From Candidatus Bathyarchaeota archaeon (lineage in GTDB: Archaea > Thermoproteota > Bathyarchaeia > TCS64), in assembly GCA_963769425.1 (NCBI GenBank), contig CAVYLP010000004.1:288001-352000 (forward strand): a DNA stretch of 64,000 bases. The letters are read 5' to 3'. Shown one piece after another: positions 2,493-57,948 of the stretch (positions are counted from its first letter, which is position 1; each line of letters opens with the position of its first letter). Made by a program: the position numbers and the translations under genes. The notes beneath the pieces are model-generated. The model ran no database searches, had not been told where the DNA came from, and saw only the letters and a program-made list of their open reading frames with translations.

Positions 2493-3344
2493 TTGCCTGA
2501 TAAACTGGAAAAGCTAACGAGACAAGAAGCTAGTAAAGAATTAGCTTCATCAATACAATGGTTTCGAGAAAAAGGAAATGCCAGAACTGTTAGATGGTTG
2601 GAATTTATTTTAAATAACATAAAAATGGAGAACCCTTCAGATTATACGTCGGATATTTTCGAGGTTATTTCAGCTTATTATGCAGATGTTGAAGAACGAG
2701 GAGCTGGATTAAAAATTTGCTCAGAAACCATTGGAAGGATTATAATCAATGTTTTAAAAGGAAATAGGGGAGTCGATACATTTAGATCGTCATTATTAGA
2801 AATGTATCCACTTATTGTAAAATGGAGGATCACTCAGGAAAATTTAAAAAGGATATTGGATTTAAAAAATGAGAAACTAAGTATAAGTGCTCAATACCAT
2901 TTATTATTATTCTTATATCTAATTACTATAGAGGGATCATATTCTAATTGGATAAGGATATTATATAAGTTACAATGTATATCAAATCATAAAAAATGCA
3001 ATTTATCAAGTATTGAAGATATTACCCCTTTTAAAATTAAACAAAATATGATTGAAATGAATGCCGGTTGTAATATTTTTTTTAGTGGATACTTTGATGG
3101 TAATCTACGCAACGCCATCGGTCACGGCGATTTCGCATTTAATGAGTCAACTAACCGAATGATATTCAACCATACTTGGAATGGACAAATCAAATTTAGA
3201 GAAGAAATCAGTTATGATGAGTTCCTCGACATCTTCAGGTTGATTGATAATTTTATTGTAATAAATATCAATTATTTCTTTATTTTACGTTTAACCAGTT
3301 ATAGACATTTTTTTAAGAATTACCAAAAAACCCGTACAACCTAA
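2493..3344 (+). CDS. Putative HEPN-domain RNase
   Basis: All-helical 283 aa protein with RNxxxH motif (LRNAIGHG); very AT-rich. Confidence 0.6.
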   Translation: MPDKLEKLTRQEASKELASSIQWFREKGNARTVRWLEFILNNIKMENPSDYTSDIFEVISAYYADVEERGAGLKICSETIGRIIINVLKGNRGVDTFRSSLLEMYPLIVKWRITQENLKRILDLKNEKLSISAQYHLLLFLYLITIEGSYSNWIRILYKLQCISNHKKCNLSSIEDITPFKIKQNMIEMNAGCNIFFSGYFDGNLRNAIGHGDFAFNESTNRMIFNHTWNGQIKFREEISYDEFLDIFRLIDNFIVININYFFILRLTSYRHFFKNYQKTRTT

Positions 3345-3548
3345 TCATATGCGCAATTTTTATAGAAGAAGAAGTTTTTCAAAGTGCATTTGGTGTGGGA
3401 GAACCATCGACATAACAAAACAAGGAGCGCGCGCACATCCATTAACCAGGTGCTCTCATCCAAAAGGGCAGAATTAAAGGATATAACAAGAATCAATTTT
3501 AACTCAAAGCTTTTATCCGGAAATAACTACAAGTGTAAATGATTAATA

Positions 3549-4205
3549 ATGAAAAAATCGAGCAAGTTAATTCTCCTCGCGGGCCTTGTTGTTCTGATAA
3601 CCGCTTCTGTAGTGACCGCTCTCGCCCTCACATCACATCTAAAAGTCCAAGATGGCAAATTAACACTCTCTCTGACATCTGAGACTGTCCTTTTTAATGA
3701 CGATTTCAATGGTGTTTCCTTGGCTTCTCCTTGGCTCGTCGAGGACACGGGATCAACCATCACGGCCTATTTTCCATTCACTCCACCATCGGGACATTAC
3801 ACGGTCTCTGCTAGAGTAAGCTCCTCACAACTAGCAGCCTTCGCCTTGCGTCTGCATAGTGGATCAACGCCAATCACGGGTTCTATAAGTGGGATACAAT
3901 TGGAGATGGATCCTGGTGTTTCAGGAAAATGGTTCATGGCTTCTTGGGCTTCTTCTGGTGGGTGGACTTGGAACAATATTGCCGGCCCTGTTAACATGAA
4001 TACTTGGTACATTTTGGAGATGGTTGTGCAACAAAGCCCCTTTCAAGTAACCTATAACGTGTATAGTGACAACAAGCAAGCATTATTGGGGAGTTATACA
4101 ACAAGCAGTTTTTCTGTCACATACCAGAGCATTGACTACATTTGCCTTGAACTGTGGACGGGGCCTTCAAGTTACAGTATTGATTGGATTAAAGTAACAT
4201 CCTAA
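3549..4205 (+). CDS. Secreted or membrane-anchored beta-sandwich (ConA/LamG-like) protein
   Basis: N-terminal signal/TM helix; LFNDDF start motif and NTWYILEMVV strand typical of ConA-like folds. Confidence 0.55.
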   Translation: MKKSSKLILLAGLVVLITASVVTALALTSHLKVQDGKLTLSLTSETVLFNDDFNGVSLASPWLVEDTGSTITAYFPFTPPSGHYTVSARVSSSQLAAFALRLHSGSTPITGSISGIQLEMDPGVSGKWFMASWASSGGWTWNNIAGPVNMNTWYILEMVVQQSPFQVTYNVYSDNKQALLGSYTTSSFSVTYQSIDYICLELWTGPSSYSIDWIKVTS

Positions 4206-4256
4206 AACCTATAATTTGAGTCTAGTAATTTGTAACTTTTCAATTGCCACCAATAA

Positions 4257-5262
4257 TTAAGATGAGCTTATAGTAGAAATTTGTTTTAGAGTTTCTTGAT
4301 AACTATTGTATAAATAGTTAAGGAGGACAATGGAAATCGTAATCAATGGTGCCAATTTTTCAAGCATGTCCTTGAAAAGTTGCAAAAATTCTGAAGCAAA
4401 CTTTACTAAGAGATTGCCAATCTCTTTAAAGATAGCTAACAACCCCGTTATTACTTTTTTTTCAAATATAAGAGCAATGAAGCCTAATCCAATCAATAGC
4501 ATAATCCAATCGGGTAATTTAGAAATAGCCTTTATCGTGCCACTTGCAAGTCCTATGAAAAATTTAGTGATCTCCGCTTAATACCTCAAGTAGAGCACGA
4601 ATAATCGCGACTCCTAACTGAAAAATAGCATAAAATATATTTGGTAAAATCTTTGAAATTGTAAAAAATGAAAAACTTCCCTTTTTAAAAATGGATATTA
4701 AACTTCCTATATTTTTTATTTTCCATGTCTTGACAGAAGGCTGGTCTATGATGTCAGAGTCCTTTGTGATAATTCCATGCGCTTTTATTTGGATACTTAA
4801 AGCTAAAAAAGAGACATCATTTGGGTCTCTCTTTCCAATGATAGAGTAACCCTCAAACAAAGCCAGAAGATTAGTGGGATTAAGGATAGTTAATCTCGGA
4901 AGTATGTCGGTGTTCCAAGTCTTCATTAGAATTTCTTTATTTAATTTCATTTTCACAGATAGTTCCTTGATGTGCCGTTCTACCTCCTCTATGAGTGTAA
5001 AAGGAGCGTATAGATGTAAGAAGGGCTCTGTGATTAGTTTGTGCAAAAAGGATTCTCCACGTTTGGCATAAGAAATTAAATTTGAAATTATCGAGCTGGA
5101 ATCAACAACTAGTTTCAAATCTAGTTTGAATGTATTACCAACAAAATTAGATATGTTCTGCTCGAAATACGCCTTTAAATCAGTAATAAGATCAACTGGA
5201 AAACCCTCTAGAATCCCCTCAATCGACTTATCTATTTTTCGAAAATCGACATGAGTTATCAT
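4257..5262 (-). CDS. PIN-domain nuclease with C-terminal hydrophobic helices (one extra base at ~4578)
   Basis: VVDSSSII, EEV, DPNDVSFLAL, IITKDSD PIN motifs; removing one A joins 4564..5262 to 4257..4502 via AEITKFFIGLASGTIKAISKLPDWIMLLIGLGF. Confidence 0.65.
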
Positions 5263-7645: not shown

Positions 7646-7661
7646 ATCAACGTGTGATGCG

Positions 7662-8849
7662 ATGGCAGAGAAGAATGAGGGCATAGGGCCCTCGACGAAG
7701 TGCGTGCACGTCGGCTCCGAGCCAGACCCGGCGTGGGGCGCGATTGTCCCCCCGATCTACCAGACGACGACGTACGCCGTGCCGAACGTCCCCGACCTCA
7801 TAGCTCGATATGCCCGCAAGAAGACTGGTTTCACCTACACAAGCACGGGCAACCCGACGCAGCGCGTCGCCGAGGTAAAGATAGCCGCCGTCGAGGGGGG
7901 TGAGGACGCCGCCGTCTTCAGCGCCGGCATGGCCGCAATCACCTCGACGATTACCAGCATCGTCACCCGAGGAGACGAGGTCATCGCCCCGAGGGAGCTC
8001 TACGGCGAGACCTTCCACTTCTTCCACCTCCTTGAGGAGAAGATGGGGATCAAGACCCATTACTTCGACACCACCAACGTGGGCGAGGTCGAGGGACTGA
8101 TCAACGGTAAGACAAGGCTCCTCTACCTCGAGACGCCGACAAACCCGACGCTCCGCCTCGTAGACATCGCCGAGGGGGTGCGGATAGCCAAGAGGCACGG
8201 CGTGACGACTGTGCTCGATAACACCTTCGCCTCTCCTATGAACCAGACGGGTATCGCCCTAGGCGTTGACGTCGTCGTCGAGAGCGCCACAAAGTCACTC
8301 TCCGGACACCACCAGGCCGTCTGCGGCGTCGCCGTCGGCACGAAGGATAGGATACGCGCCATAAAGTCGACCCGCGGTCTCTACGGGCAGACCCTCGACC
8401 CCTTCGCGGCGTGGCTCCTCGTCATGGGCATGCAGACAATGGCACTCCGTGTCGACAGGCAGAACTCCAACGCCCTCCAACTCGCCCAGTACCTAGAGGC
8501 GCACCCCAAGATCAGCCGCGTTCACTACCCCGGCCTACCCAGCCACCCCCAGCACGCCCTAGCGCTGCGTCAGATGCGCGGCTTCGGCGGCCTGCTCGCT
8601 TTCGAGGTCAAGGGCGGCCTCGATGAGGTGTCGGGGTTGTTTGACCACCTAAAGCTGGTGAAGCTGGCTACGAGCCTCGGAGGCGTCGACACAATCGCGA
8701 CGATCCCCTTCATCTCGACGCACGGCGACCTTAAGCCGGAGGAGAAGGCGAGGATGGGCATCACCCAGACTCTCATCCGCGTAAGCGTCGGCATCGAGGA
8801 CTTCACCGACCTTAGGAGGGACTTCGAGGAAGCCCTCTCCCAAGTCTAG
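7662..8849 (+). CDS. Cys/Met metabolism PLP enzyme (cystathionine gamma-synthase/lyase or Met gamma-lyase family)
   Basis: PPIYQTTTY, ETPTNP, DNTFA, SATKSLSGH (PLP Lys), SLGG, IRVSVGIE. Confidence 0.85.
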   Translation: MAEKNEGIGPSTKCVHVGSEPDPAWGAIVPPIYQTTTYAVPNVPDLIARYARKKTGFTYTSTGNPTQRVAEVKIAAVEGGEDAAVFSAGMAAITSTITSIVTRGDEVIAPRELYGETFHFFHLLEEKMGIKTHYFDTTNVGEVEGLINGKTRLLYLETPTNPTLRLVDIAEGVRIAKRHGVTTVLDNTFASPMNQTGIALGVDVVVESATKSLSGHHQAVCGVAVGTKDRIRAIKSTRGLYGQTLDPFAAWLLVMGMQTMALRVDRQNSNALQLAQYLEAHPKISRVHYPGLPSHPQHALALRQMRGFGGLLAFEVKGGLDEVSGLFDHLKLVKLATSLGGVDTIATIPFISTHGDLKPEEKARMGITQTLIRVSVGIEDFTDLRRDFEEALSQV

Positions 8850-8852
8850 CCA

Positions 8853-8861
8853 TTTTTTTTT
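8853..8861 (+). terminator. Oligo-T archaeal terminator
   Basis: T9 run immediately after the stop codon. Confidence 0.5.
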
Positions 8862-8923
8862 ACCCTCAGCCGCCTCCTTTAACGCCGTTAAGTATATTAA
8901 CGGCGTTAATCGATTATGCGGCG

Positions 8924-48353: not shown

Positions 48354-49685
48354 ATGGCTACCGAGACTCTCCCCGGCTACAGAGGGAAGCTCAGGGAGCT
48401 TCTCACCCGCGCTAGGGTCGGCGTGGGGGACGTGGTCAGGGTAAACAAGGGTGGCGAGGCATACGAGGGCACGCTCCTCCCCCGCGTCGAGAACGCCGAC
48501 GACTGGCACCTAATCATCAAGCAGAAGACCGGCTACAACATAGGGATCGCCCTCGTCAACGACCTACGCGTCGAGAAGATCGGGGAGGCCGTGAAGCCCG
48601 AGTTCAGGCCACCACCACTCCCCCCCGTGAAGGAGGGGCTGCCCAAGGTCAGCATCATAAGCACAGGCGGCACCATCGCAAGCCGCGTCGACTACGTAAC
48701 CGGCGGCGTCTATGCCGCGATGTCGAGTCGGGACCTACTCAGCATCGTCCCAGAGCTCGCAGACATCGCCCAGATCGAGGCGGACATCCTCTATAGCGTC
48801 TTCAGCGAGAACATCAACTCGGACCATTGGGAGGGCATTGCGAAGAGGGTGGCAGAGAAGATCAAGCAGGGCGCGGACGGCGTCATCATCACACACGGGA
48901 CAGACACGATGGGGTACAGCACCGCCGCACTCACGCTGGCGATCCAGAACCTCCCCGTCCCCGTCATCTTCGTCGGTAGCCAACGCAGTAGCGACCGCCC
49001 CAGCAGCGACTCCGCCACGAACCTAGTCGCAGTTGTCAACGCGGCGGCCCACGCCCCCTTCGCCGAGGTTGTCCTAGGCATGCACGAGGGCACGGGCGAC
49101 GACTCCATAATCTTCCACCCCGGCGCCAAGGTCCGCAAGTGCCACTCAAGCGCCCGCTACGCCTTCCAGACGGTGAACGCGAGCCCCGTAGCCCGATTCA
49201 GGGACGGTAAGATGGAGATGCTAGCCGAGCATTACCGGCCACGCCAGGACTCGGAGCCCATCATCATGAACAAGTTCGAGAAGAAGGTGGCGCTCGTCAA
49301 GTTCCACCCCGGATTCAACCCAATAATAATCGACGCCCTCATAGACGCGGGCTTCCGCGGCCTCGTCTTCGAGGGGACGGGCCTCGGCCACGTCTCCGAG
49401 ACGCTCTACGACGCCATCGGGCGCGCGGGGAAGGCGGGTTTGCTTATGGGTATGACGAGCCAGTGCATCTGGGGCCGCGTAAACATGAACGTCTACAGCA
49501 TGGGGCGGGAGCTAACACGCCGCGGCGTCGAGCCTCTTGAGGACATGCTCCCCGAGACCGCCTTAGTCAAGATGATGTGGAGCCTCGGCAACACGGGCAC
49601 CGCCGAGGAGGCGAAGAAGCTCCTCAAGACAAACGTCGCGGGGGAGTACAACCCCCGGACCCCGTACGCGAGGAGGGAGAAGTGA
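48354..49685 (+). CDS. gatD: Glutamyl-tRNA(Gln) amidotransferase subunit D
   Basis: GYNIG, TGGTIASRVDY, HGTDT, QRSSDRPSSD. Confidence 0.95.
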   Translation: MATETLPGYRGKLRELLTRARVGVGDVVRVNKGGEAYEGTLLPRVENADDWHLIIKQKTGYNIGIALVNDLRVEKIGEAVKPEFRPPPLPPVKEGLPKVSIISTGGTIASRVDYVTGGVYAAMSSRDLLSIVPELADIAQIEADILYSVFSENINSDHWEGIAKRVAEKIKQGADGVIITHGTDTMGYSTAALTLAIQNLPVPVIFVGSQRSSDRPSSDSATNLVAVVNAAAHAPFAEVVLGMHEGTGDDSIIFHPGAKVRKCHSSARYAFQTVNASPVARFRDGKMEMLAEHYRPRQDSEPIIMNKFEKKVALVKFHPGFNPIIIDALIDAGFRGLVFEGTGLGHVSETLYDAIGRAGKAGLLMGMTSQCIWGRVNMNVYSMGRELTRRGVEPLEDMLPETALVKMMWSLGNTGTAEEAKKLLKTNVAGEYNPRTPYARREK

Positions 49686-51584
49686 TGGACTACAAGAAGA
49701 TAGGGCTAAAGGTCGGCATAGAGGTCCACCAGGAGCTCGCCACCGAGCACAAGCTCTTCTGCAGCTGCCCCCCGAGGCTCAGCGAGTCGGAGCCCGAGTT
49801 CAGGTTCCTGCGCCGCCTCCGTCCGAGCCAGAGTGAACTAGGCGAGTTCGACCCAGCCGCCCTATTCGAGTTCCTCAAGGGCAAGACTATACAGTACGAG
49901 GGCGACAGCGCCACAACATGTCTCGTCGAGATGGACGAGGAGCCCCCAGGACCCCTAGACCCCGAGACGCTTGAGCTGACCCTGAGCTTCGCCCTCATGG
50001 TGGGGAGCAAGCCTGTGGACGAGGTCCACGTGATGCGTAAGACCGTCGTGGATGGCAGCAACACGGGCGGGTTCCAGCGAACATGCGTCGTCAGCCTCGG
50101 TGGAGGCATTGAGGTCGACGGCAAACCGTACGGTATCCAGCAGATCAGTCTCGAGGAGGACGCCGCGAGGAACGTCGGCGAGGAGGGGAGCATCGTCCGC
50201 TACCGCCTCGACCGCCTCGGGATACCCCTCATGGAGATCGCTACTGCGCCTGACATGCACAACCCAGCGGAGGTCCAGGCAGTAGCACTCAGGATCGGTA
50301 GCTTACTCCGCGCCACCGGGAAGGTACGTAGGGGCCTTGGCACAATCCGCCAGGACGTGAACGTCTCGATAATGAACGGGAGAGGTCGTCGAGATCAAGG
50401 GCGTCCAGGATCTACCCCTGATGCCCACCATAGTCGAGTACGAGGCTCAGCGCCAGTGGAGCCTCCTAGAGATCAAGGAGGAGCTCCTTAAGCGCGGCGT
50501 GAAGCCCGAACACATTAAGGACGAGCAGCTCGACGTATCCACCATCTTCAAGGCGACCGAGTCAAAGATACTAAAGGGCGCGCTGAAGAATGGGGGTGTT
50601 GTTAGGGCGGTGAGACTCCCCGGCTTCGCAGGCCTGACCGGCAGGGAGCTATGCCCCAACAGACGCCTCGGCACCGAAATGAGCGACCACGCCAAGTACA
50701 AGGGCGGGGTCAAGGGAATCTTCCACACAGACGAGCTACCCGGCTACAGCATCACACAGGCCGAGGTCGACGCCCTACGCTCCGCCGCCCACGCCGCGGA
50801 GGGGGACGCCGTCGTCATAGTCGCTGATGAAGCGGAGAAGAGCAGACGAGCCCTGACGGCAGTAGTGGAGCGGGCACGGGATGTCTTCAACGGGATACCC
50901 TTGGAGACCCGGGCGGCGAACCCCGACGGGACTACCCGATTTACGCGGCCACGCCCCGGCGCAGCGCGCATGTACCCAGAGACGGATGTAAAGGCCATAA
51001 CCATAACCCCCGAGCACCTAGAGAAGCTCAGGGCGAGCCTACCCGAGATGCCGGAGGCCAAACTCAAGCGCTTCCAGAGTGACTACGGCCTCAACGAGAA
51101 GCTGGCGAGGCAGATCGTCGACAGCGAGTACATGGGCCTCTTCGAGGAGTTGACGCGCGAGTACAAGGCTCTTACTACACTCGCTGCGGTGACTCTTACT
51201 GAGGACCTGAAGAAGCTACAGAGGGACGGCGTCCCAGTTGAGGCGCTTACGGACAATGCCATACGCGGTACCTTCGCCCTTGTGGATTGCGGGGATACCG
51301 TGAAGGAGTCGGTCCCAGTAATACTCACGTGGCTCGTCCAGAACCCTTCCAGGAAGGCGAGGGATGCTATCACCGCCCTCGGGCTAGGTGTACTATCGGA
51401 AGAGAAGCTCGCTTCTGTCGTCGACGCGAAGATCAAGGCGAACACCGCGATGATCGCCAAGATAGGGGAGAAGGCTGCGGGGCCGATAATGGGTGCAGTC
51501 ATGGCGGAGGTACGCGGGAAGGCGAAGGCCACTGACGTGCAGGATATGATCGCGAGAAAGCTTAAGGAAGCACTCGCGAAGTAA
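49685..51584 (+). CDS. gatE: Glutamyl-tRNA(Gln) amidotransferase subunit E (extra G at ~50378)
   Basis: GIEVHQ, DGSNTGGFQRT, GTIRQDVNVSI, then VEIKGVQDL and RMYPETD after correction. Confidence 0.93.
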
Positions 51585-51760
51585 TCCTTATTTTATAATA
51601 TTCGCTCATTCATAAGCGTATTATGATCAGGCTATGTATATCATCTCATAATTCTGAGACGTTATGCATTAAATCAGGATAATAATCTTGAATAAAGACC
51701 AAAAAACAACGATTTTTCATATTTAATCGCCTTTTTTAAAAAGGGTAACAAAACGCCGCA

Positions 51761-51783
51761 AGTTGTTCGACAACTGTTATAAG
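51761..51783 (+). promoter_or_regulatory. Palindromic operator candidate abutting a TATA box
   Basis: AGTTGT-TCG-ACAACT (51761-51775) then TTATAAG (51777-51783), ~40 nt before ATG 51822. Confidence 0.5.
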
Positions 51784-51821
51784 CCCCATAATACCAAGAG
51801 TAATACGAGTTGTGAGGATCC

Positions 51822-52265
51822 ATGAGCCGCCCGCTGTTTCATCTCAAAGTTAAGATCGGGGAGATGGAGGTAGAGCTAGGCGGGGACAAGGCAGAGGTCC
51901 TCAGCGCCCTCGACGAGCTCCCGAGTATAGTCGAGAAGGTCTCCGCGAGCTTCCAGGGTGAGTCCTCCGGTCACAGGCCACGCCCCCGGAAGCAGCCGGA
52001 GAACGGGGCCCCCGAGGCGTTGCCTCAGATTCCCCGGACCACCCAGTGCAGCGAGGCAGTGACCGCGCTCCTCGCGGACCCGTGGGGGAAGACTCCCCGA
52101 ACCATCGCGGAACTCAGGGAGGCTATGGAGGCAAACGCCGTCTTCTTCCCCAAAACGACCCTATCCGGGGTCCTCGTTTGGATGGTGAAGAAGGGGACCG
52201 TCAGAAGGTGGAAGGACAAGAAGAGGGGATACCTCTACACGATGAATACGCCGGAGCCCGAGTAG
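51822..52265 (+). CDS. Beta-hairpin/helix N-domain plus C-terminal winged helix
   Basis: HLKVKIGEMEVELGG...; RTIAELREAM..TLSGVL..MVKKGTVRR..GYLY. Confidence 0.65.
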   Translation: MSRPLFHLKVKIGEMEVELGGDKAEVLSALDELPSIVEKVSASFQGESSGHRPRPRKQPENGAPEALPQIPRTTQCSEAVTALLADPWGKTPRTIAELREAMEANAVFFPKTTLSGVLVWMVKKGTVRRWKDKKRGYLYTMNTPEPE

Positions 52266-52266
52266 T

Positions 52267-52749
52267 ATGCCGAAGATAACGCTGACCGTCAAGACCCAGT
52301 TCGGGGACATACAGGTGTCGGGGGAGAACCCCGAGGAGCTTCTCAGCGGCCTAGACTGGCTCACACAAGAGTACGTAGCGCAGCTCAATGAGAAGGTCTC
52401 CGTGGTTGTCTCAAAGCAAGCCCTCGACCACCTGAAGGACATAGTCGAGATGAGGCGGGACGGCCCAATACTCGTCTGCAAGGAGGAGATAAGCCACTAC
52501 GAGGCTATCGGGTTACTCCTCTACGCGATGAAGGGTTACCAGGCGACGGGGAAGGAGTTGAAGGCTTTCCTCAACGAGAGCGGGCGCAAGGTGATAGTGC
52601 CCGCTCGGCTTCACGAGATGGTGAAGAAGGGCGTGCTCTTCCGCCCCGAGGGGAGGGGGAGTATCTACAAGCTGACGGCGAAGGGCGTCAACTGGGTGGA
52701 GAAGGAGGTTCTTCCGCCGATTCGGGAGAAGCAGGCTGCGTTGGCCTAG
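52267..52749 (+). CDS. Paralogous beta-hairpin/helix plus winged-helix protein
   Basis: TLTVKTQFGDIQVSG...; ARLHEMVKKG..YKLTAKG. Confidence 0.65.
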   Translation: MPKITLTVKTQFGDIQVSGENPEELLSGLDWLTQEYVAQLNEKVSVVVSKQALDHLKDIVEMRRDGPILVCKEEISHYEAIGLLLYAMKGYQATGKELKAFLNESGRKVIVPARLHEMVKKGVLFRPEGRGSIYKLTAKGVNWVEKEVLPPIREKQAALA

Positions 52750-53062
52750 GGTGTGCCCTTTCGTAGTCCTCGTACATGTCGGAAACAGTGACGAGTAGAC
52801 TGAGTATGATCTGCTTAGCTTCGCAGGTGTAGCCTCCGTCCTTGAATGGGCTGCGCTGTATGAGATTCTTCTCGAGGAGCTTCGACACCGCCCTCTCCGT
52901 CGCCTTGGGCGTGAGGTTGAGTTCCGTCGAGATCTCCTTCACCGTCATCGTCCTCGCAGTCCCCAGTAGGTGGAATACTATCTGGAACTGGCTCGGCGCC
53001 TTCCGTAGCTTGAGGAGCGTGTCCGTCCTGTCCCTTAGCTCGGCAAGCTGCTTCTCAGACAT
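52688..53062 (-). CDS. TrmB/Lrs14-like winged-helix protein
   Basis: MTVKEISTEL..TERAVSKLLEKNLI..GY, followed by a C-terminal helix. Confidence 0.7.
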   Translation of the reverse strand: MSEKQLAELRDRTDTLLKLRKAPSQFQIVFHLLGTARTMTVKEISTELNLTPKATERAVSKLLEKNLIQRSPFKDGGYTCEAKQIILSLLVTVSDMYEDYERAHPRPTQPASPESAEEPPSPPS

Positions 53063-53141
53063 CTTTTCCCGATGCCACTTTCTCTCATGACCTTTTAAAT
53101 GATACCTATCGGCGTGGAGCAGGGAGGTGGTCGAAAGTGGC

Positions 53142-53399
53142 TTACTTGTGCCCCATGTCCCGGTAGAGCTTCATGATCAAATCATAAGGCGTCACGACGG
53201 CGACGTAGCCCTCGGGGCGTGCCTCGACTAGGCCCTGCTTCTTCAACTCCGCGAGGCGCGCTCGGACCGTGGAGCCGTTCTCCCCCAGAACCACAGCGAT
53301 CTCCTGCGGCTTGAGGATGCTCCCCCTAAAGGCTAGGTGGCAGAGTATCTTGTAGGCTGAGGTCTCGGGTTCTAGCTGGTCGAGCTTCTCGGCGCTCAT
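53142..53399 (-). CDS. TrmB/Lrs14-like minimal winged-helix protein
   Basis: KPQEIA..STVRARLAELKKQGLV..GY. Confidence 0.72.
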   Translation of the reverse strand: MSAEKLDQLEPETSAYKILCHLAFRGSILKPQEIAVVLGENGSTVRARLAELKKQGLVEARPEGYVAVVTPYDLIMKLYRDMGHK

Positions 53400-53662
53400 T
53401 TGGTGAAATACTCCTTGAGGAGCGTGACTAGGATGGGGCCGAGCTTGTAGCGGTAGACTCCGCGGCTGACGGGGTCGACGAGCCCCTTGTTCTTGAGATT
53501 GAAGAGGGCGATGTTGACGGCGTTGACGGTGAGCTTGAGTTTCTCGGCGATCTCCTGACTCGACATGGCCTCGCCGCTCTCAACGAGGCAGAGTAGCACC
53601 TGCTGCTGGCTTTCTGCTCGCCTCAGGCCCTCAAGCTCGTCCGCGCCAACCAACCCGGTCAC
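53396..53662 (-). CDS. TrmB/Lrs14-like minimal winged-helix protein
   Basis: SSQEIAEKL..AVNIALFNLKNKGLV..GVY. Confidence 0.72.
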   Translation of the reverse strand: MTGLVGADELEGLRRAESQQQVLLCLVESGEAMSSQEIAEKLKLTVNAVNIALFNLKNKGLVDPVSRGVYRYKLGPILVTLLKEYFTK

Positions 53663-53916
53663 TTCTTCGCGAAGATGTATGAAACGAAGTCGGTGAAGGG
53701 GATGGCGCTTCTGTAGGTACCGTCTTCTTGCTGCTTGACGTAACCCTTGTCGAGGAGGCTACGGAGCGCTGGACGTACTGTGCCTGGGGCGATGCCTGTC
53801 TCCTCGCTAATAGCTCCAGGGAGGCTCGCGCCACGGAATGCCAGGTATGTTAGGGTCTTGAATTGCGCCGTATCCGGTTTGAGCTCTTGCGTCGCCTTAT
53901 CGATCAGCTCTGCCAA
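53659..53916 (-). CDS. TrmB/Lrs14-like minimal winged-helix protein
   Basis: GAISEETGI..TVRPALRSLLDKGYV..GTY. Confidence 0.72.
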   Translation of the reverse strand: MAELIDKATQELKPDTAQFKTLTYLAFRGASLPGAISEETGIAPGTVRPALRSLLDKGYVKQQEDGTYRSAIPFTDFVSYIFAKK

Positions 53917-53917
53917 T

Positions 53918-54163
53918 CTACTTCACCTGCTTCTCCAGTGCCTCAATTCTCTCCATTAGATGGATGACGATCCCTGCGTAGTTAGGCTCGTAGTTGCCCC
54001 GCCCGCTCCTTTGGAGGAGCCCTTCACGGGCCAGCTTGGCGAAGGCGTCCTTGACAGAGTTGTACTTAGCGTCGAGCTTGGCCGCCATCTGCTCGGGGCC
54101 GAGTGTTGGGTCTTGGAGGAAGCTGCGGAAAACCTTGTCCTTTAGGCTCAAATCCTCGGACAT
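53918..54163 (-). CDS. Minimal winged-helix protein with coiled-coil tail
   Basis: PEQMAAKL..SVKDAFAKLAREGLL..GNY..MERIEALEK; TTAATAAG ~25 nt upstream suggests a leaderless mRNA. Confidence 0.72.
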   Translation of the reverse strand: MSEDLSLKDKVFRSFLQDPTLGPEQMAAKLDAKYNSVKDAFAKLAREGLLQRSGRGNYEPNYAGIVIHLMERIEALEKQVK

Positions 54164-54372
54164 TTGATTAAAACTGGCCCGTACTTCTTATTAACTTTGT
54201 TTTTGACCTGGCGATGTCGGATCGCTCGTGGAGTGGTTTTACCGAGCGTTATCATTTCTTTATTTATATATAAAATGGCGTTTAAACCAAATTACGCTCT
54301 ATGCATTCGATCACTTTATATGTCTAGGAAAAAATGTGTTGTGCAGGGACAGTTCTGGGGGTTAATCGTCGA

Positions 54373-55431
54373 GTGCTAAGTCTTGAGGAGCGGGCGGGGG
54401 TAATTGAGGGAGTACGGAGGCCGGGGGAGAGTCTGAGCCTCTCCATAAGGGACCTCCTGCTGGGCGAGATTTCGAGTGACGTGGCGTCTGAGCAACCCGC
54501 CGTCGCTGCCTTAGCTGCTAGGATCAGGGAGGAGATGAGCCTCTTCCCCATGACGAAGCATGAGGTATTCAAGAGAGTGGCTGGTGTGGACGCGGGGAGC
54601 CAGATCCTGCCCCTTGCATCGAAGAGGTATGGCGTCGTCAGCGCACTCGCCTACGGGCTTCCGGGGGGAGCTAAATTTTGGATGCGCCCCGAGTCGATGT
54701 CGCTTCCGTACGGTGTCGCGGGGAATAGGTTCGAGGGGATGGTGAACGCGAGGAGGGAGGCGAAGCTCTACGAGACCGCAGCCGTCTACCTAATTGCCCA
54801 CCCCGAGACCGAGCTACTCCTAGTCGACGGTCCACTCGCCTTCAGCGACTGGTGGAGGATGACGGGCTGCCACAAGGACCAGAAGAGGCTCCTCGACGCC
54901 GTCAACAATCTTCTTCACCTCGGCAGGGAAGCTGGTGTCGCCCTCGCCGGCGTCGTGAAGAGGCCGAGCGCCAGGTACCTCCTTTACCATCTCGGCATGC
55001 AGGGGGAGACTCAACTACCCGACAGCTTCCTCCTCCTCCACGCGCTGAGGCCGGGGGAGAGGACGGACATCTTCTCGCCGAAGTCCGCGCTGGCGCAGGC
55101 GAGCAGGCCCGCCGCCTTCATGGGCTCCCTAGACGTCCCCATCTACAGCTTCTATGCAAGGATGACACGGGAGTGGAGCCTCCCCCCCATTAGGGTGGAC
55201 CTCCCCGCCCACTGCCTCGGGGGGCTCGACGACGTCGCCGACTACTGCTATGGGACGGCGCTAAACAACGGCATACCTCTCCCCCTAGTGAAGGCGGACG
55301 AGGAGGTCAAGATAACCCGCCGCTTCATGGCGGAGGTCTACGGGGAGATACTGAGCAGGGTGAGCAGGCGCACCGGGGAGGTACGGGGGCTCGCGCCGTA
55401 CTGGGGTGAGGGCAGATGGATGGGGGCTTGA
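54373..55431 (+). CDS. NurA-family nuclease
   Basis: VAGVDAGS, LLLVDGPL, GVVKR, GIPLPLVKADEEVKI; probable GTG start at 54373. Confidence 0.8.
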   Translation: MLSLEERAGVIEGVRRPGESLSLSIRDLLLGEISSDVASEQPAVAALAARIREEMSLFPMTKHEVFKRVAGVDAGSQILPLASKRYGVVSALAYGLPGGAKFWMRPESMSLPYGVAGNRFEGMVNARREAKLYETAAVYLIAHPETELLLVDGPLAFSDWWRMTGCHKDQKRLLDAVNNLLHLGREAGVALAGVVKRPSARYLLYHLGMQGETQLPDSFLLLHALRPGERTDIFSPKSALAQASRPAAFMGSLDVPIYSFYARMTREWSLPPIRVDLPAHCLGGLDDVADYCYGTALNNGIPLPLVKADEEVKITRRFMAEVYGEILSRVSRRTGEVRGLAPYWGEGRWMGA

Positions 55432-56930
55432 AGGTAGGGCATACCTACAGCCTGACGGGCGAGTACAGCATCGATAAGATCACTGTGCTCCTCATGAGGG
55501 GACGTGAGTTGGCGAAGGGCGACCTCGTCTACGTCAAGCACCCTAAGAACGGGTCACCCGTCGTTTACCAGGTCGTCAAGGTCTACCCCCACAAGCGGGT
55601 CCGCGAGTACGAGGAGGCCCTGCTCACAGAGGGGCGAGTCATAGACGACGCCGAGGACTCCAGTCTGCACGCAGAGGCGTACCAGTGGGGGTGGATGGAC
55701 GGGGAGGGCAGCCTCAGGCCGCTACGGTACCCACTCGCCCCAAACACGCAGGTCTTCGCGGCGGAGCGCGACCTTGTCGCGAAGTTCACGAAGCCGAACG
55801 GGGAGTGGAAGTTCCTACTCGGCACGGACCCGACGACCGACCTCGATGTTGAACTGGGTCTCTACCCGTTGATCCGGCAGAGCTGTCTCATCTGCGGGGC
55901 GGTTGGGACAGGGAAGACGACGACGGCAGTAAGCATGGTGGCACGCGCTGCAAACGCGAATCCCCCTGTCCGCTTCTTTATAGTCGATAAGGACGGGGAG
56001 TACAGCAGCTTAACCGACCGCCTCGGGGCGGGCGCCGTCCTCAAGGTACCTTGGAGCAGCTTCTTCCAGCCCGGTGACATCCCCTGGGACGACTACGTCG
56101 CCGAGTTCGGGTGGCAGAAGACGTGGTGGAACGCTAAGATACTCGTCCAGGCGCTGAAAGTCCTCTACGCGCAGGCCGCCACCGTCACGAAGGCGAACCT
56201 ACGTCGGGCTGTCACCATCGTAAGCCCCGAGAACCTGGGATTCAACAAGAAGTCGGAGGAGTGGGAGCTATACAGGGCACAGGTGGAGAACGCCATAAAC
56301 GCGAGCCGACTCATCCCCGAGGGCGAAGCCACCGTCCTAGACCCAGTCCAGCTCCTCAAGGAGAGGAAGATAATCATCATGGACCTTAGCGACGGCAAGG
56401 ACACTTGGGAGCAGAAGCACCTTGTTGTGGCTCAGGTTCTCCGGAAGATCTTCGGTGAGGCCCTGGAGAACAGGAAGTTCGGATGCATCGTACTGCTCGA
56501 GGAGGCGATGTACTACGCGCCTCAGCACGGCGTCTTCGAGATAGGTGAGAAGGAGAGCCGGGGGAAGCTACTTAGTGTCATCAAGGAGATCGCTACGAAC
56601 GGTGGGCGTAACGGCGTCGGCCTCTGGGCGGTGACGCAGCGCCTCGCTACCGTGGAGAAGACCGTAGTTACCCAGTGCGCTAACAACATTATCTGTCATG
56701 GTCTCGAGGACCTCGACAAGCAGCGCCTCGCAGAGATAATGGGGGACGAGTTTACGCAGCTCATAGGCGACTTGCCCCCGGGGGAGGCTATAGTGAAGGG
56801 AACCGCATTAAAGTGTCGGTTTCCTATCTGGGTCAAGGTGCTCCCCGAGGTCTACCCCGCGTCGAGCCTGAGTACCCCGATGAGTCGCTTTGTCCACATG
56901 GCATTGACCGAGGCGGCCGCTCCCCAATAA
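55416..56930 (+). CDS. HerA-family ATPase/DNA translocase
   Basis: N-terminal HAS-barrel-like region, GAVGTGKT, DKDGEY, LLEEA, GR.GVG..VTQR, LPPGEA. Confidence 0.85.
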   Translation: MDGGLKVGHTYSLTGEYSIDKITVLLMRGRELAKGDLVYVKHPKNGSPVVYQVVKVYPHKRVREYEEALLTEGRVIDDAEDSSLHAEAYQWGWMDGEGSLRPLRYPLAPNTQVFAAERDLVAKFTKPNGEWKFLLGTDPTTDLDVELGLYPLIRQSCLICGAVGTGKTTTAVSMVARAANANPPVRFFIVDKDGEYSSLTDRLGAGAVLKVPWSSFFQPGDIPWDDYVAEFGWQKTWWNAKILVQALKVLYAQAATVTKANLRRAVTIVSPENLGFNKKSEEWELYRAQVENAINASRLIPEGEATVLDPVQLLKERKIIIMDLSDGKDTWEQKHLVVAQVLRKIFGEALENRKFGCIVLLEEAMYYAPQHGVFEIGEKESRGKLLSVIKEIATNGGRNGVGLWAVTQRLATVEKTVVTQCANNIICHGLEDLDKQRLAEIMGDEFTQLIGDLPPGEAIVKGTALKCRFPIWVKVLPEVYPASSLSTPMSRFVHMALTEAAAPQ

Positions 56931-56962
56931 TTATTAATAAAACACCCACAGCCGGGGGATAC

Positions 56963-57948
56963 ATGGGTGCAGCGCAGACAACAAGGCACAGACGCGTAGA
57001 CTACGGTCGGAGCCTCCTCAAGATCATCGTGCTGTTTGTTCTACTCAGTGCCTGTCTGAGCATCGTCGTTATCCTATTCCAGTGGCAGGACGTGCAGCAG
57101 CTGCCCGTGTTCCTCAGACCATACGCTCCGATACTGCTCGCCATCAGCCCACACCTCCGCTACATAAACGCGGTGATAATCATCGTCCTCGGTTACTTAA
57201 TCGTCGGTGAGGTGGGGCACATAGTCTACGCATATATGCGCGGCTTCGCTGACCAGTCCTCTGCGGCAACGGTCCAAAACATCACGAGGATCGTGGGATT
57301 CGGCGTCCTCCTGGCGGTGTTAGCCTCCGTGTTCAGCGTCGACCCCGCAGCGGCACTCACCCTCGGCGGGTTCGGGGGCTAGTCGTAGGCTTCGCGACGC
57401 AGACGTTCCTATCTAATACAATTGCGGGCATCTTCGTCCTGGTAACCCGCCCCTTCACATTCGGCGATGTTGTCACGATATCAGGAAATTGCGGTACCGT
57501 CAAGGAGATCAGGATCATGCACCTACTTCTGGAGTCATCCGACGGCTCCAAGGATATACTGATACCAAACAGCCTCGTGCTTAGCCAGGTGATCCTGAAG
57601 AACAGGCCCGGGGTGAGGATGGGGCCGACCCCGACGCTGCTCACACTCGACCCGCTTCCTGAGAAGGTGAAGATTGGCGAGAAGATAGTGTTCACGGGGA
57701 GGTTGACGGATACGACGAATGGGAAGCCGATGGCTGAGGCGACCGTATTAATCCTTGACAGGGACATTGGAAAGGACGACCTGCTCGGGGAGGGGGTAAC
57801 CGACGCCGAGGGAGCCTACCGCGTCGAGTGGGAGGCCCGAAAGGTGGACGAGTTCGACGACACAGCCGAGGTATACGCCAAGTTCGAGGGGGACGAAGAT
57901 CACAGATCCTGTCACACGAAGCGGTACGTCGTCGAGATACTGAAGTGA
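56963..57948 (+). CDS. MscS-family channel with C-terminal Ig-like domain (one G missing at ~57374-57378)
   Basis: TM helices, then GLVVGFATQTFLSNTIAG, RPFTFGD, IPNS after correction; tail FTGRLTD..G.P..A.V..TD..G.Y. Confidence 0.75.

Follow-up and report, generated by a model that had tools for sequence, protein, structure and literature searches.

Archaea resect DNA ends with the NurA-HerA complex, which has been studied almost exclusively in hyperthermophiles and alongside Mre11-Rad50. We analysed a nine-gene block from the genome of a Candidatus Bathyarchaeota archaeon (assembly GCA_963769425.1), in which a NurA-HerA pair lies beside seven small genes for winged-helix (wH) proteins. The block under study occupies positions 51822-56930 of a 64,000-nucleotide stretch of contig CAVYLP010000004.1, hereafter the window, to whose first letter coordinates refer unless another contig is named. 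An earlier note, made from the sequence alone, had put the block forward as a candidate DNA-processing or chromatin module, and knew of no described system with this architecture. Gene linkage, the presence of a second NurA-HerA pair in the genome and the placement of HerA among its relatives all agree that the block is a conserved and undescribed module of wH proteins and a non-canonical NurA-HerA pair.

A second NurA-HerA pair and its neighbourhood

All nine genes were confirmed by open reading frame (ORF) listing together with profile searches. The block opens with two plus-strand genes, p147 (51822-52265; 147 amino acids, aa) and p160 (52267-52749; 160 aa), each combining an N-domain with a winged helix and belonging to the p147/p126 and p160/p170 subfamilies respectively. 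Next to them is a minus-strand operon of five short wH genes, read in the order w81 (53918-54163), the most distinct of the five, w85b (53659-53916), w88 (53396-53662), w85a (53142-53399) and w124 (52688-53062). The genes w85b and w85a are paralogues of type A; w88 and w124 are paralogues of type B, w88 being the best conserved of the five and w124 carrying a C-terminal tail. The plus strand then holds paralogues of nurA (54334-55431), for a nuclease of the RNase H-like NurA fold, and of herA (55416-56930), for a P-loop translocase of the FtsK-HerA type. Packing is tight throughout: w88 and w85a overlap in ATGA, w85b and w88 in GTGA, nurA and herA by 16 nt and the 3' ends of p160 and w124 by 62 nt, and gaps of 1 nt separate w81 from w85b and p147 from p160. 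Housekeeping genes flank the block, with elp3, gatD and gatE before it and Nudix and pyrB after it, and a 237-bp AT-rich spacer (51585..51821) parts gatE from the block, GC content being 0.47 in 51500-51999 against ~0.6 on either side.

The five minus-strand genes of 81-124 aa, with their overlaps and gaps, and the AT-rich stretch before the block are as the earlier note had described them. Two of its terms need refinement. The plus-strand wH genes were called convergent, which is correct in that they converge on the minus-strand array and incorrect in that the two are co-directional and do not face each other. Likewise, all seven genes were taken for winged helix-turn-helix genes; winged helices are indeed present, but p147 and p160 are not plain examples, having an extra N-domain and a disordered linker.

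Both enzymes look catalytically intact. NurA aligns to positions 2-254 of the 254-position Pfam profile PF09376 with 46 bits (cut-off 21), and its AlphaFold2 (AF2) model has a predicted local distance difference test score (pLDDT) of 85 and a predicted template-modelling (TM) score, pTM, of 0.82, with residues 1-31 disordered. No real match to NurA was found among PDB sequences with phmmer. In structural comparison by Foldseek the first match to the model was Sulfolobus solfataricus NurA (2ygk; E 6.7e-14, TM 0.61/0.69), followed by HerA-NurA of Thermococcus kodakarensis (9x1m among the top matches) and by Pyrococcus furiosus, with TdpAB (8wfd) at rank 5. Across 15 diverse homologues, the canonical NurA of this genome included, residues D86, R141, D165, K209 and R287 do not vary, and conservation of E142 and D322 reaches 90% or more; the acidic ones among these are candidate active-site positions. 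HerA matches Pfam PF01935 (DUF87; 39.4 bits against a cut-off of 23.2), and the segments that we assign as its Walker A motif, GTGKTT, and its acidic motif, LLEEA, vary little or not at all among 10 orthologues. Its phmmer matches to PDB sequences are weak and confined to the C-terminal part of solved HerAs (best 8wiv, E 7e-11). It stays below the cut-offs of the repair equivalogs NF040819 and NF040937 (34.6 and 37 bits against 970 and 800) and of the anti-phage model NF042943, HerA_antiphage (46 bits against 800); a PADLOC match of 68 bits likewise covers its C-terminal part only.

The genome (2.55 Mb in 6 contigs, 91% complete) contains two NurA and two DUF87 matches. The other pair, on contig C6, belongs to a nurA-herA-mre11-rad50 operon, which holds the only Mre11 and Rad50 genes found in the genome. 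The earlier observation that mre11 and rad50 are absent from the locus is borne out by this separate operon, which is also the second locus that had been proposed as a check; the HerA of the window is not the sole copy. The relationship of this HerA to the Mre11-linked clade was examined in a quick IQ-TREE analysis of 44 sequences and in a FastTree analysis of 49 rows, the latter leaving out the long-branched L039 and L153, with roots that are midpoints only. In the IQ-TREE phylogeny a branch with 100% support in the Shimodaira-Hasegawa-like approximate likelihood ratio test (SH-aLRT) separates 8 rows, of which 7 are Mre11-Rad50-linked, from the rest, and FastTree repeats the split with 98-99% local support. 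The HerA of the window falls outside the Mre11-Rad50-linked clade in both trees. A third type of nurA-herA-mre11-rad50 operon was seen in loci L172 (G024:C36) and L173 (G012:C9), whose HerA is 33-34% identical to the canonical HerA of the present genome and forms a sister group within the Mre11-Rad50-linked clade; some relatives therefore carry three NurA-HerA pairs.

Conservation and history of the module

Relatives were sought in 41 genomes (the present one, G000, and 40 others), 32 of them of the same order, at E <= 1e-20. The HerA paralogue was found in 36 genomes, including all 32 of the order, at 62-97% identity, and the canonical-HerA query matched 26 genomes, 23 of them in the order. 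Five genomes without a canonical-query match were tested; all five have another DUF87 HerA and four have Rad50. Where both HerAs are present, the paralogue is as conserved as the canonical protein or more so (77% identity versus 69% in G021, 74% versus 66% in G027 and 66% versus 63% in G025).

The nine genes are intact in order and orientation in 14 of the 18 loci fetched from relatives. Other arrangements comprise L037, with the five short wH genes and nurA-herA between other flanks, L038, with p-genes and nurA-herA, and L039, with nurA-herA only. Two peptide patterns, which reached only Bathyarchaeia-type loci, gathered 80 public loci, almost all of them filed under Bathyarchaeota or Bathyarchaeia; the complete pattern is present in 44 and another architecture in 8, the remainder being parts of the pattern that are mostly cut by contig ends or a gap. 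Since nine genes keep their order in 14/18 and 44/80 loci, a chance arrangement is excluded, and the wH array and nurA-herA stay linked, on which the proposal in the earlier note had been made to depend. The w88 gene is present in 48 of 50 genomes from families f1-f4, those of the window's order, and in 0/150 genomes from other families of the class; the two genomes lacking it are 86% and 64% complete. Insertion of the block as an island was also considered and ruled out, given the synteny of the flanks and the persistence of the block across relatives. Three public records, labelled Krumholzibacteriaceae (L055), Desulfaltia (L057) and Patescibacteria (L077), encode a HerA 76-80% identical to that of the window, and the first two also carry the 56-bp element described below; all three are most likely misbinned archaeal contigs.

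To judge from profiles and models, the label of seven winged helix-turn-helix genes appears to mask an old set of two N-domain and wH subfamilies together with five truncated derivatives specific to the order. An AF2 model was made for p147, and the domain layout of p160 was drawn from profile comparison. The p147 model begins with a beta-hairpin and two helices (pLDDT ~75), continues through a disordered linker at residues 47-62 and ends in a C-terminal winged helix (pLDDT ~95). In p147 the N-domain is acidic, with an isoelectric point (pI) of 4.8, and the wH basic, with a pI of 9.7; the corresponding parts of p160 have values of 4.7 and 9.9. Foldseek comparison of the p147 model with the PDB returned generic wH regulators only, at E >= 7e-3, and nothing for the N-domain. 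The p147 family amounts to 837 clusters, every one of them 'hypothetical' or unnamed and without a Pfam domain; in the ESM Atlas the clusters nearest to p147 come from Bathyarchaeota and Nitrososphaerota. Pfam cut-offs were passed by w124 (MarR, 27.6 bits; HTH_24, 26.6 bits), w85a (HrcA_DNA-bdg, 23.7 bits), w88 (HTH_24, 25.0 bits) and w85b (HTH_IclR, 23.9 bits), and no Pfam wH cut-off was reached by w81, which has sub-threshold matches, by p147 or by p160, which has no match. The assignment of the wH fold comes from Pfam for w124, w85a, w88 and w85b and from AF2 and Foldseek for p147; for w81 and p160 it is indirect, through profile-profile links of 94-99% probability.

Profile comparison by HHalign also ordered the families. 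It pairs p147 with the divergently transcribed p126 type (98%) and p160 with the p170 type (99.1%). All five short wH proteins resemble the wH domain of p170-type proteins (about 90-96%) and have no such match to the p147 type. Among the short proteins w85a pairs with w85b (99.5%) and w124 with w88 (98.5%), while w81 matches w88, w124 and the p170-type wH part at 94-95%. The operon order, w81 and then A-B-A-B (w85b, w88, w85a, w124), therefore points to a duplicated two-gene unit. Each wH gene has one-to-one orthologues, with sequence identities close to those of the housekeeping enzymes on either side; w88 is 65-94% identical in relatives, and w81 has its orthologue in 16/18 loci. The wH families are single-copy and occur only here in the genome, the other matches being weak generic wH hits and one 304-aa ORF. 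This ORF (G000:C6:726536-727450) matches the p160 profile over its last 90 residues (E 9e-14, positions 58-148); its N-terminal 200 aa are unrelated, and the protein is a remote paralogue encoded outside the module.

Profile searches of an evenly drawn sample of 401 genomes from across the phylum Thermoproteota gave a wider range than the peptide patterns. The p147 profile matches 127 genomes of this sample and the HerA profile 40 (E <= 1e-25). By our reading of the place lists, a p147 match is also present in 33 of the 40 HerA-positive genomes, and in 20 of those 33 it lies on the same contig as HerA and <5 kb away, usually at a spacing of ~1.5-1.8 kb and on the opposite strand, which is to say divergent from nurA. 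In other Bathyarchaeia orders (L161, L162, L167 and 8/80 public loci) three or four p-genes stand directly upstream of nurA-herA on the same strand, without short wH genes. In L165, from another class, the p-genes are on the opposite strand and divergent from nurA. Among eight p147-match loci from other families or classes, seven hold p-genes beside proteins of 341-391 aa and 484-494 aa; four such pairs were tested, and gave 19-26 bits for NurA (three of the four at or above 21) and 34-57 bits for DUF87. The module again sits between gatD-gatE and a Nudix gene in L175, L177 and L181, which belong to other orders or classes.

In the FastTree phylogeny the p-linked HerAs occupy three of four deep clades, namely that of the window, a second with L165 and L167, and a third that is long-branched; the Mre11-Rad50-linked clade contains none of them. 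Throughout the phylum, the wH families are inherited together with NurA-HerA pairs of non-canonical type. Their old core would be the 147/160-aa family of N-domain and wH proteins, from which the five short wH genes, confined to the order, appear to derive. Two non-canonical NurA-HerA pairs per genome were seen in G064 and G049, genomes of another class (L176 and L182 as against L158 and L160). One pair is related to the clade of the window, and of L158 and L160 only L160 has a weak wH-profile match nearby; the arrangement points to an ancient duplication or else to one enzyme pair having displaced the other.

One locus brings the module next to Mre11 and Rad50. L038 (G035:C8, 2968-13465), from another order, encodes a HerA 58% identical to that of the window and in the same clade, and comprises three p-family genes and one divergent, nurA-herA, then a gene for an Mre11-type phosphoesterase (7649-8881) and, 2.6 kb beyond this, a Rad50-type gene (2968-5055). 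The Mre11- and Rad50-type proteins are 25-27% identical to the canonical Mre11 and Rad50 of the present genome, and the canonical-HerA query has no match in the genome of L038. Because L038 adjoins Mre11 and Rad50, it ties the HerA clade of the window to double-strand-break processing.

Promoters and the 56-bp element

Alignment of 16 intergenic regions between w81 and nurA showed a conserved block with a 56-bp imperfect palindrome (54244..54299), of the form GAGCG-N5-ATTTC ... GAAAT/CAAAT-N2-CGCTC, which encloses a TATA box, TTTATATATAAAA (54263-54275). The element has a fixed length and is kept in 16/16 aligned loci, the arm in the window itself being CAAAT, and it occurs once in the 2.55-Mb genome. 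A search of the public loci with an nhmmer profile found exactly one copy in each of 61/80. It is present in all 60 loci with w81, the 61st locus being cut 100 bp upstream of the element, and in 0/19 of the remaining loci, among them the 8 of the other, P-type architecture. The 56-bp element originated jointly with the set of short wH genes. Given that w88 is confined to the order and that the element tracks w81, the five-gene array and the element can be regarded as one order-specific innovation on an old module. The element itself is a putative operator common to the two divergent operons. A further copy upstream of p147 or elsewhere in the genome was considered and rejected, as the element is single-copy and the p147 promoter motif differs.

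Other promoter-like sequences were read from the same alignment. A TATA-like box on the minus strand, TTATTAAC (54188-54195), lies in a conserved block 25-32 nt upstream of the w81 start codon and is likely to be the promoter of the wH operon, with a near-leaderless mRNA. On the plus strand a TATA-like TTTATAT (54315..54321), followed by a conserved GTGTTGT, is the likely proximal promoter of nurA-herA. The ATG at 54334 lies too near this box to be the real start of nurA, and the start is probably downstream, since residues 1-31 are unstructured and unconserved and overlap promoter-like sequence. The AT-rich spacer at 51585..51821 (GC 0.47) is the likely promoter region of p147-p160, with a palindrome, AGTTGTTCGACAACT (51761-51775), a TATA-like GTTATAAG (51776-51783) and ATAATA (51788-51793); across 17 aligned p147 upstream regions the TTATAA...ATAATA pair is conserved, but the palindrome is not.

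Loci of the p126 type have operator-like repeats of another kind. In the very short divergent p126/nurA spacers of nine loci (L175, L176, L177, L179, L180, L181, L182, L165 and L038), repeats of the type TTGNNCA (TTGAACAA, TTGCGCAA, TTGTACAT and similar) crowd the TATA box at 4.4 per 100 bp versus 0.2 elsewhere (45 matches in 1029 bp versus 321 in 161762 bp, or ~22-fold), for a motif that was chosen after the sequences had been seen. Repeats of this type are not enriched in the window's own spacers.

Two neighbouring genes have irregular reading frames. The gatE gene (49577-51584) is broken into an ORF at 49577-50491, whose tail resembles out-of-frame sequence, and an overlapping one at 50421-51584 in another frame; the parts share one frame in the close relative L028 and form a single 638-aa ORF in L175. 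A frameshift near 50400-50490, or an error of assembly there, is the probable cause of the split. Downstream, a 189-aa membrane-type ORF (56813-57382) overlaps the herA 3' end by 118 nt as listed, and its real start is probably downstream of herA, since relatives align only from about residue 45.

Function of the module

The module shares with the canonical HerA-NurA of Sulfolobus, Pyrococcus and Thermococcus (PDB 2ygk, 4d2i, 9x1l-9x1p) the NurA fold, the DUF87/HerA ATPase, overlapping and co-transcribed genes, kept acidic and Walker motifs and, in the related lineage of L038, a position next to Mre11 and Rad50. It differs in that the locus in the window is without Mre11-Rad50, that its HerA lies outside the linked clade and far below the equivalog cut-offs, and that the pair has a dedicated wH family, none having been found described for the canonical system. 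Full-text literature searches returned no account of winged-helix genes tied to NurA-HerA, in agreement with the earlier statement that no such system was described. Published work touches on the enzymes: one paper simply lists herA and nurA as repair genes (PMC7554672), one gives a NurA-HerA-Mre11 adjacency in Nitrososphaera (PMC13707971) and one proposes HerA-NurA as the generator of single-stranded DNA for the Ced and Ted systems (PMC9905601).

Our preferred interpretation, to which we would give an even chance, is that of a vertically inherited chromosomal module of Thermoproteota, rather than a defence island, in which a non-canonical NurA-HerA pair and its dedicated wH family act in DNA-end processing, the wH proteins being adaptors and autoregulators. 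Its physiological role would most likely be DNA-end processing in repair or recombination, parallel to the canonical Mre11-Rad50-linked system. The old core would consist of two subfamilies of N-domain and wH proteins, with one member usually transcribed divergently from nurA-herA; in the order of the window, the p126 and p170 members would have been replaced by five truncated p170-type derivatives and a new 56-bp operator. Judging by homology, NurA-HerA would thread and digest DNA ends as the canonical complex does. The four boxes of the 56-bp element would be binding sites for the short wH proteins, through which these autoregulate the two divergent operons. With a basic wH on a flexible linker and an acidic N-domain, p147 and p160 may be DNA-recognising adaptors or gatekeepers of the enzyme, and would then serve it as Mre11-Rad50 serves the canonical pair.

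Several observations weigh against this interpretation. The p160 gene is missing from L035 and from G024-type loci, and in G026 p147 is on another contig. The nearest HerA relatives outside Bathyarchaeia (L154-L160, from other classes) are without a profile-detected wH neighbour in six of seven cases, the remaining one having only a weak w88 match, and in G049 and G064 the p-genes adjoin a different and very divergent pair. A fusion search of the p147 family found no fusion to NurA or HerA; the sole longer form is an odd 268-aa protein from an 879-bp contig, with an unrelated N-terminal part, which we treated as no evidence. The repair role is itself argued from homology and from one locus with Mre11-Rad50. 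Finally, a divergent wH gene with operator-like repeats is the textbook layout of a local repressor.

This last point belongs to an alternative in which the wH proteins are transcription factors only, perhaps DNA-damage-responsive, controlling a paralogous NurA-HerA end-resection enzyme without any physical role in it, and which we consider a serious proposition, if rather an unlikely one. It accounts for a wH gene divergent from nurA-herA in both the window and P-type loci, for a 56-bp palindrome that lies across a TATA box and has no second copy in the genome, and for the enrichment of TTGNNCA in p126/nurA spacers, with the reserve that this motif was picked post hoc; the wH folds and weak family matches are, moreover, of the MarR, ArsR, Fur and Lrs14 regulator types. 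Like Lrs14/Sta1 and the ArsR, MarR and TrmB regulators, the short proteins are small archaeal wH proteins of ~85-125 aa and probably sequence-specific promoter binders. In two NCBIfam Lrs14/Sta1 models with cut-offs of 90 and 80, w88 scores 28.1 and 27.8 bits and w124 26.3 and 27.3 bits, and w85a, w85b and w81 have no match to these models. They differ from such regulators in forming a set of five fixed-order paralogues that comes from the wH of a larger N-domain and wH family and is genomically bound to NurA-HerA. Furthermore, as one repressor would suffice per promoter, the four to seven paralogues that are each kept one-to-one over order- to phylum-level divergence speak against a plain repressor. 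The wH genes are also tightly coupled translationally, nurA is immediately preceded in other orders by three or four p-genes transcribed along with it, and a conserved acidic N-domain with a flexible linker is unusual for simple repressors. The chromatin role that the earlier note had offered in place of DNA processing is unsupported, because each wH family is single-copy and the sole conserved site is the 56-bp element at the module's own promoter.

Anti-virus defence, in which NurA-HerA would be a DNA-degrading effector and the wH proteins sensors or discriminators of self and non-self, we regard as improbable. The defence systems Sir2-HerA, DUF4297-HerA and TdpAB (PDB 8wiv, 8xau, 8su9, 8wfd) do resemble the module in joining a HerA ATPase to a nuclease-type partner outside a Mre11-Rad50 context; 8wiv was the best PDB sequence match to HerA, TdpAB was a structural match to the NurA model, and the best PADLOC and NCBIfam matches of HerA, weak as they are, are to anti-phage models. 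The tdpABC genes are presented in one report as the phosphorothioate-based Tdp system (PMC12914056). In addition, p-linked NurA-HerA pairs differ greatly between lineages, being spread over three deep clades. However, ORF listing and a Pfam scan of the locus found no modification or effector partner gene, whether of Sir2, DUF4297 or TdpC type, NurA has no PADLOC match and p147 and p160 have none of meaning. The module, unlike defence or mobile islands, is vertically inherited and near-universal, as with HerA in 32/32 genomes of the order and w88 in 48/50, is better conserved than the canonical HerA and is fixed between gatD-gatE and Nudix/pyrB, and no relatives were found in viral contigs or plasmids. 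A chromosome-handling motor, with HerA as a directional DNA pump oriented by the wH proteins in segregation, dimer resolution or DNA transfer, seems to us highly improbable. The model here is FtsK, whose winged-helix gamma domain orients the motor on KOPS sites, and a segregation role for HerA-NurA was reportedly once proposed from comparative genomics. As an analogy of mechanism only, both have a wH reader of DNA coupled to a motor of the FtsK-HerA superfamily, and the module is core-like, single-copy and highly conserved, with wH domains that are basic like DNA binders. In contrast to FtsK, the wH units here are separate proteins and a nuclease is attached to the motor, whose NurA keeps acidic residues of putative catalytic type, in keeping with DNA degradation; the module is linked to Mre11-Rad50 in L038, and the only conserved motif found, in an analysis that did not search for an oriented motif chromosome-wide, lies at the module's own promoter and occurs once in the genome. 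The chance that wH genes and nurA-herA have no functional tie, and are adjacent through synteny in a slowly rearranging region, we put as very slight. The flanking elp3, gatD, gatE, Nudix and pyrB genes are syntenic too, so that part of the within-order linkage is inherited gene order, but linkage recurs with three deeply different NurA-HerA clades and in other classes, and holds between different flanks (L037, L176, L179, L180, L182); the wH families occur in the genome only at the module, and the putative operator is common to both divergent operons.

The preferred interpretation of a module for DNA-end processing can be extended, at what we judge to be doubtful odds, to one in which the p147/p160 family and its five short derivatives are physical subunits. 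These would form a heteromeric wH platform that finds and holds DNA and loads or gates NurA-HerA, providing a second pathway, independent of Mre11-Rad50, across Thermoproteota including relatives of the ammonia oxidisers, with the A-B-A-B set reading the four operator boxes as two different heterodimers. One-to-one orthologues, translational coupling, p-genes in the nurA operon elsewhere, and basic wH with acidic N-domains are subunit-like signs; a complex prediction of p147, p160 and NurA, with NurA as the scored partner and controls not run, gave a score of 0.00, which speaks neither for nor against a complex.

What is new here is a 147/160-aa family that, from profiles and trees, appears as the old core beside three deep NurA-HerA clades. 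Within the order, the second NurA-HerA pair is retained with greater fidelity than its canonical counterpart, and the unannotated family that travels with it occurs in roughly one in three of the Thermoproteota genomes sampled. The 56-bp putative operator and the seven small proteins are readily testable in vitro. Should the wH proteins prove to be substrate-recognition or control subunits, they would represent a new accessory principle for a ring translocase-nuclease, and, if true, this would open a way into the DNA repair of large archaeal groups, uncultured and mesophilic.

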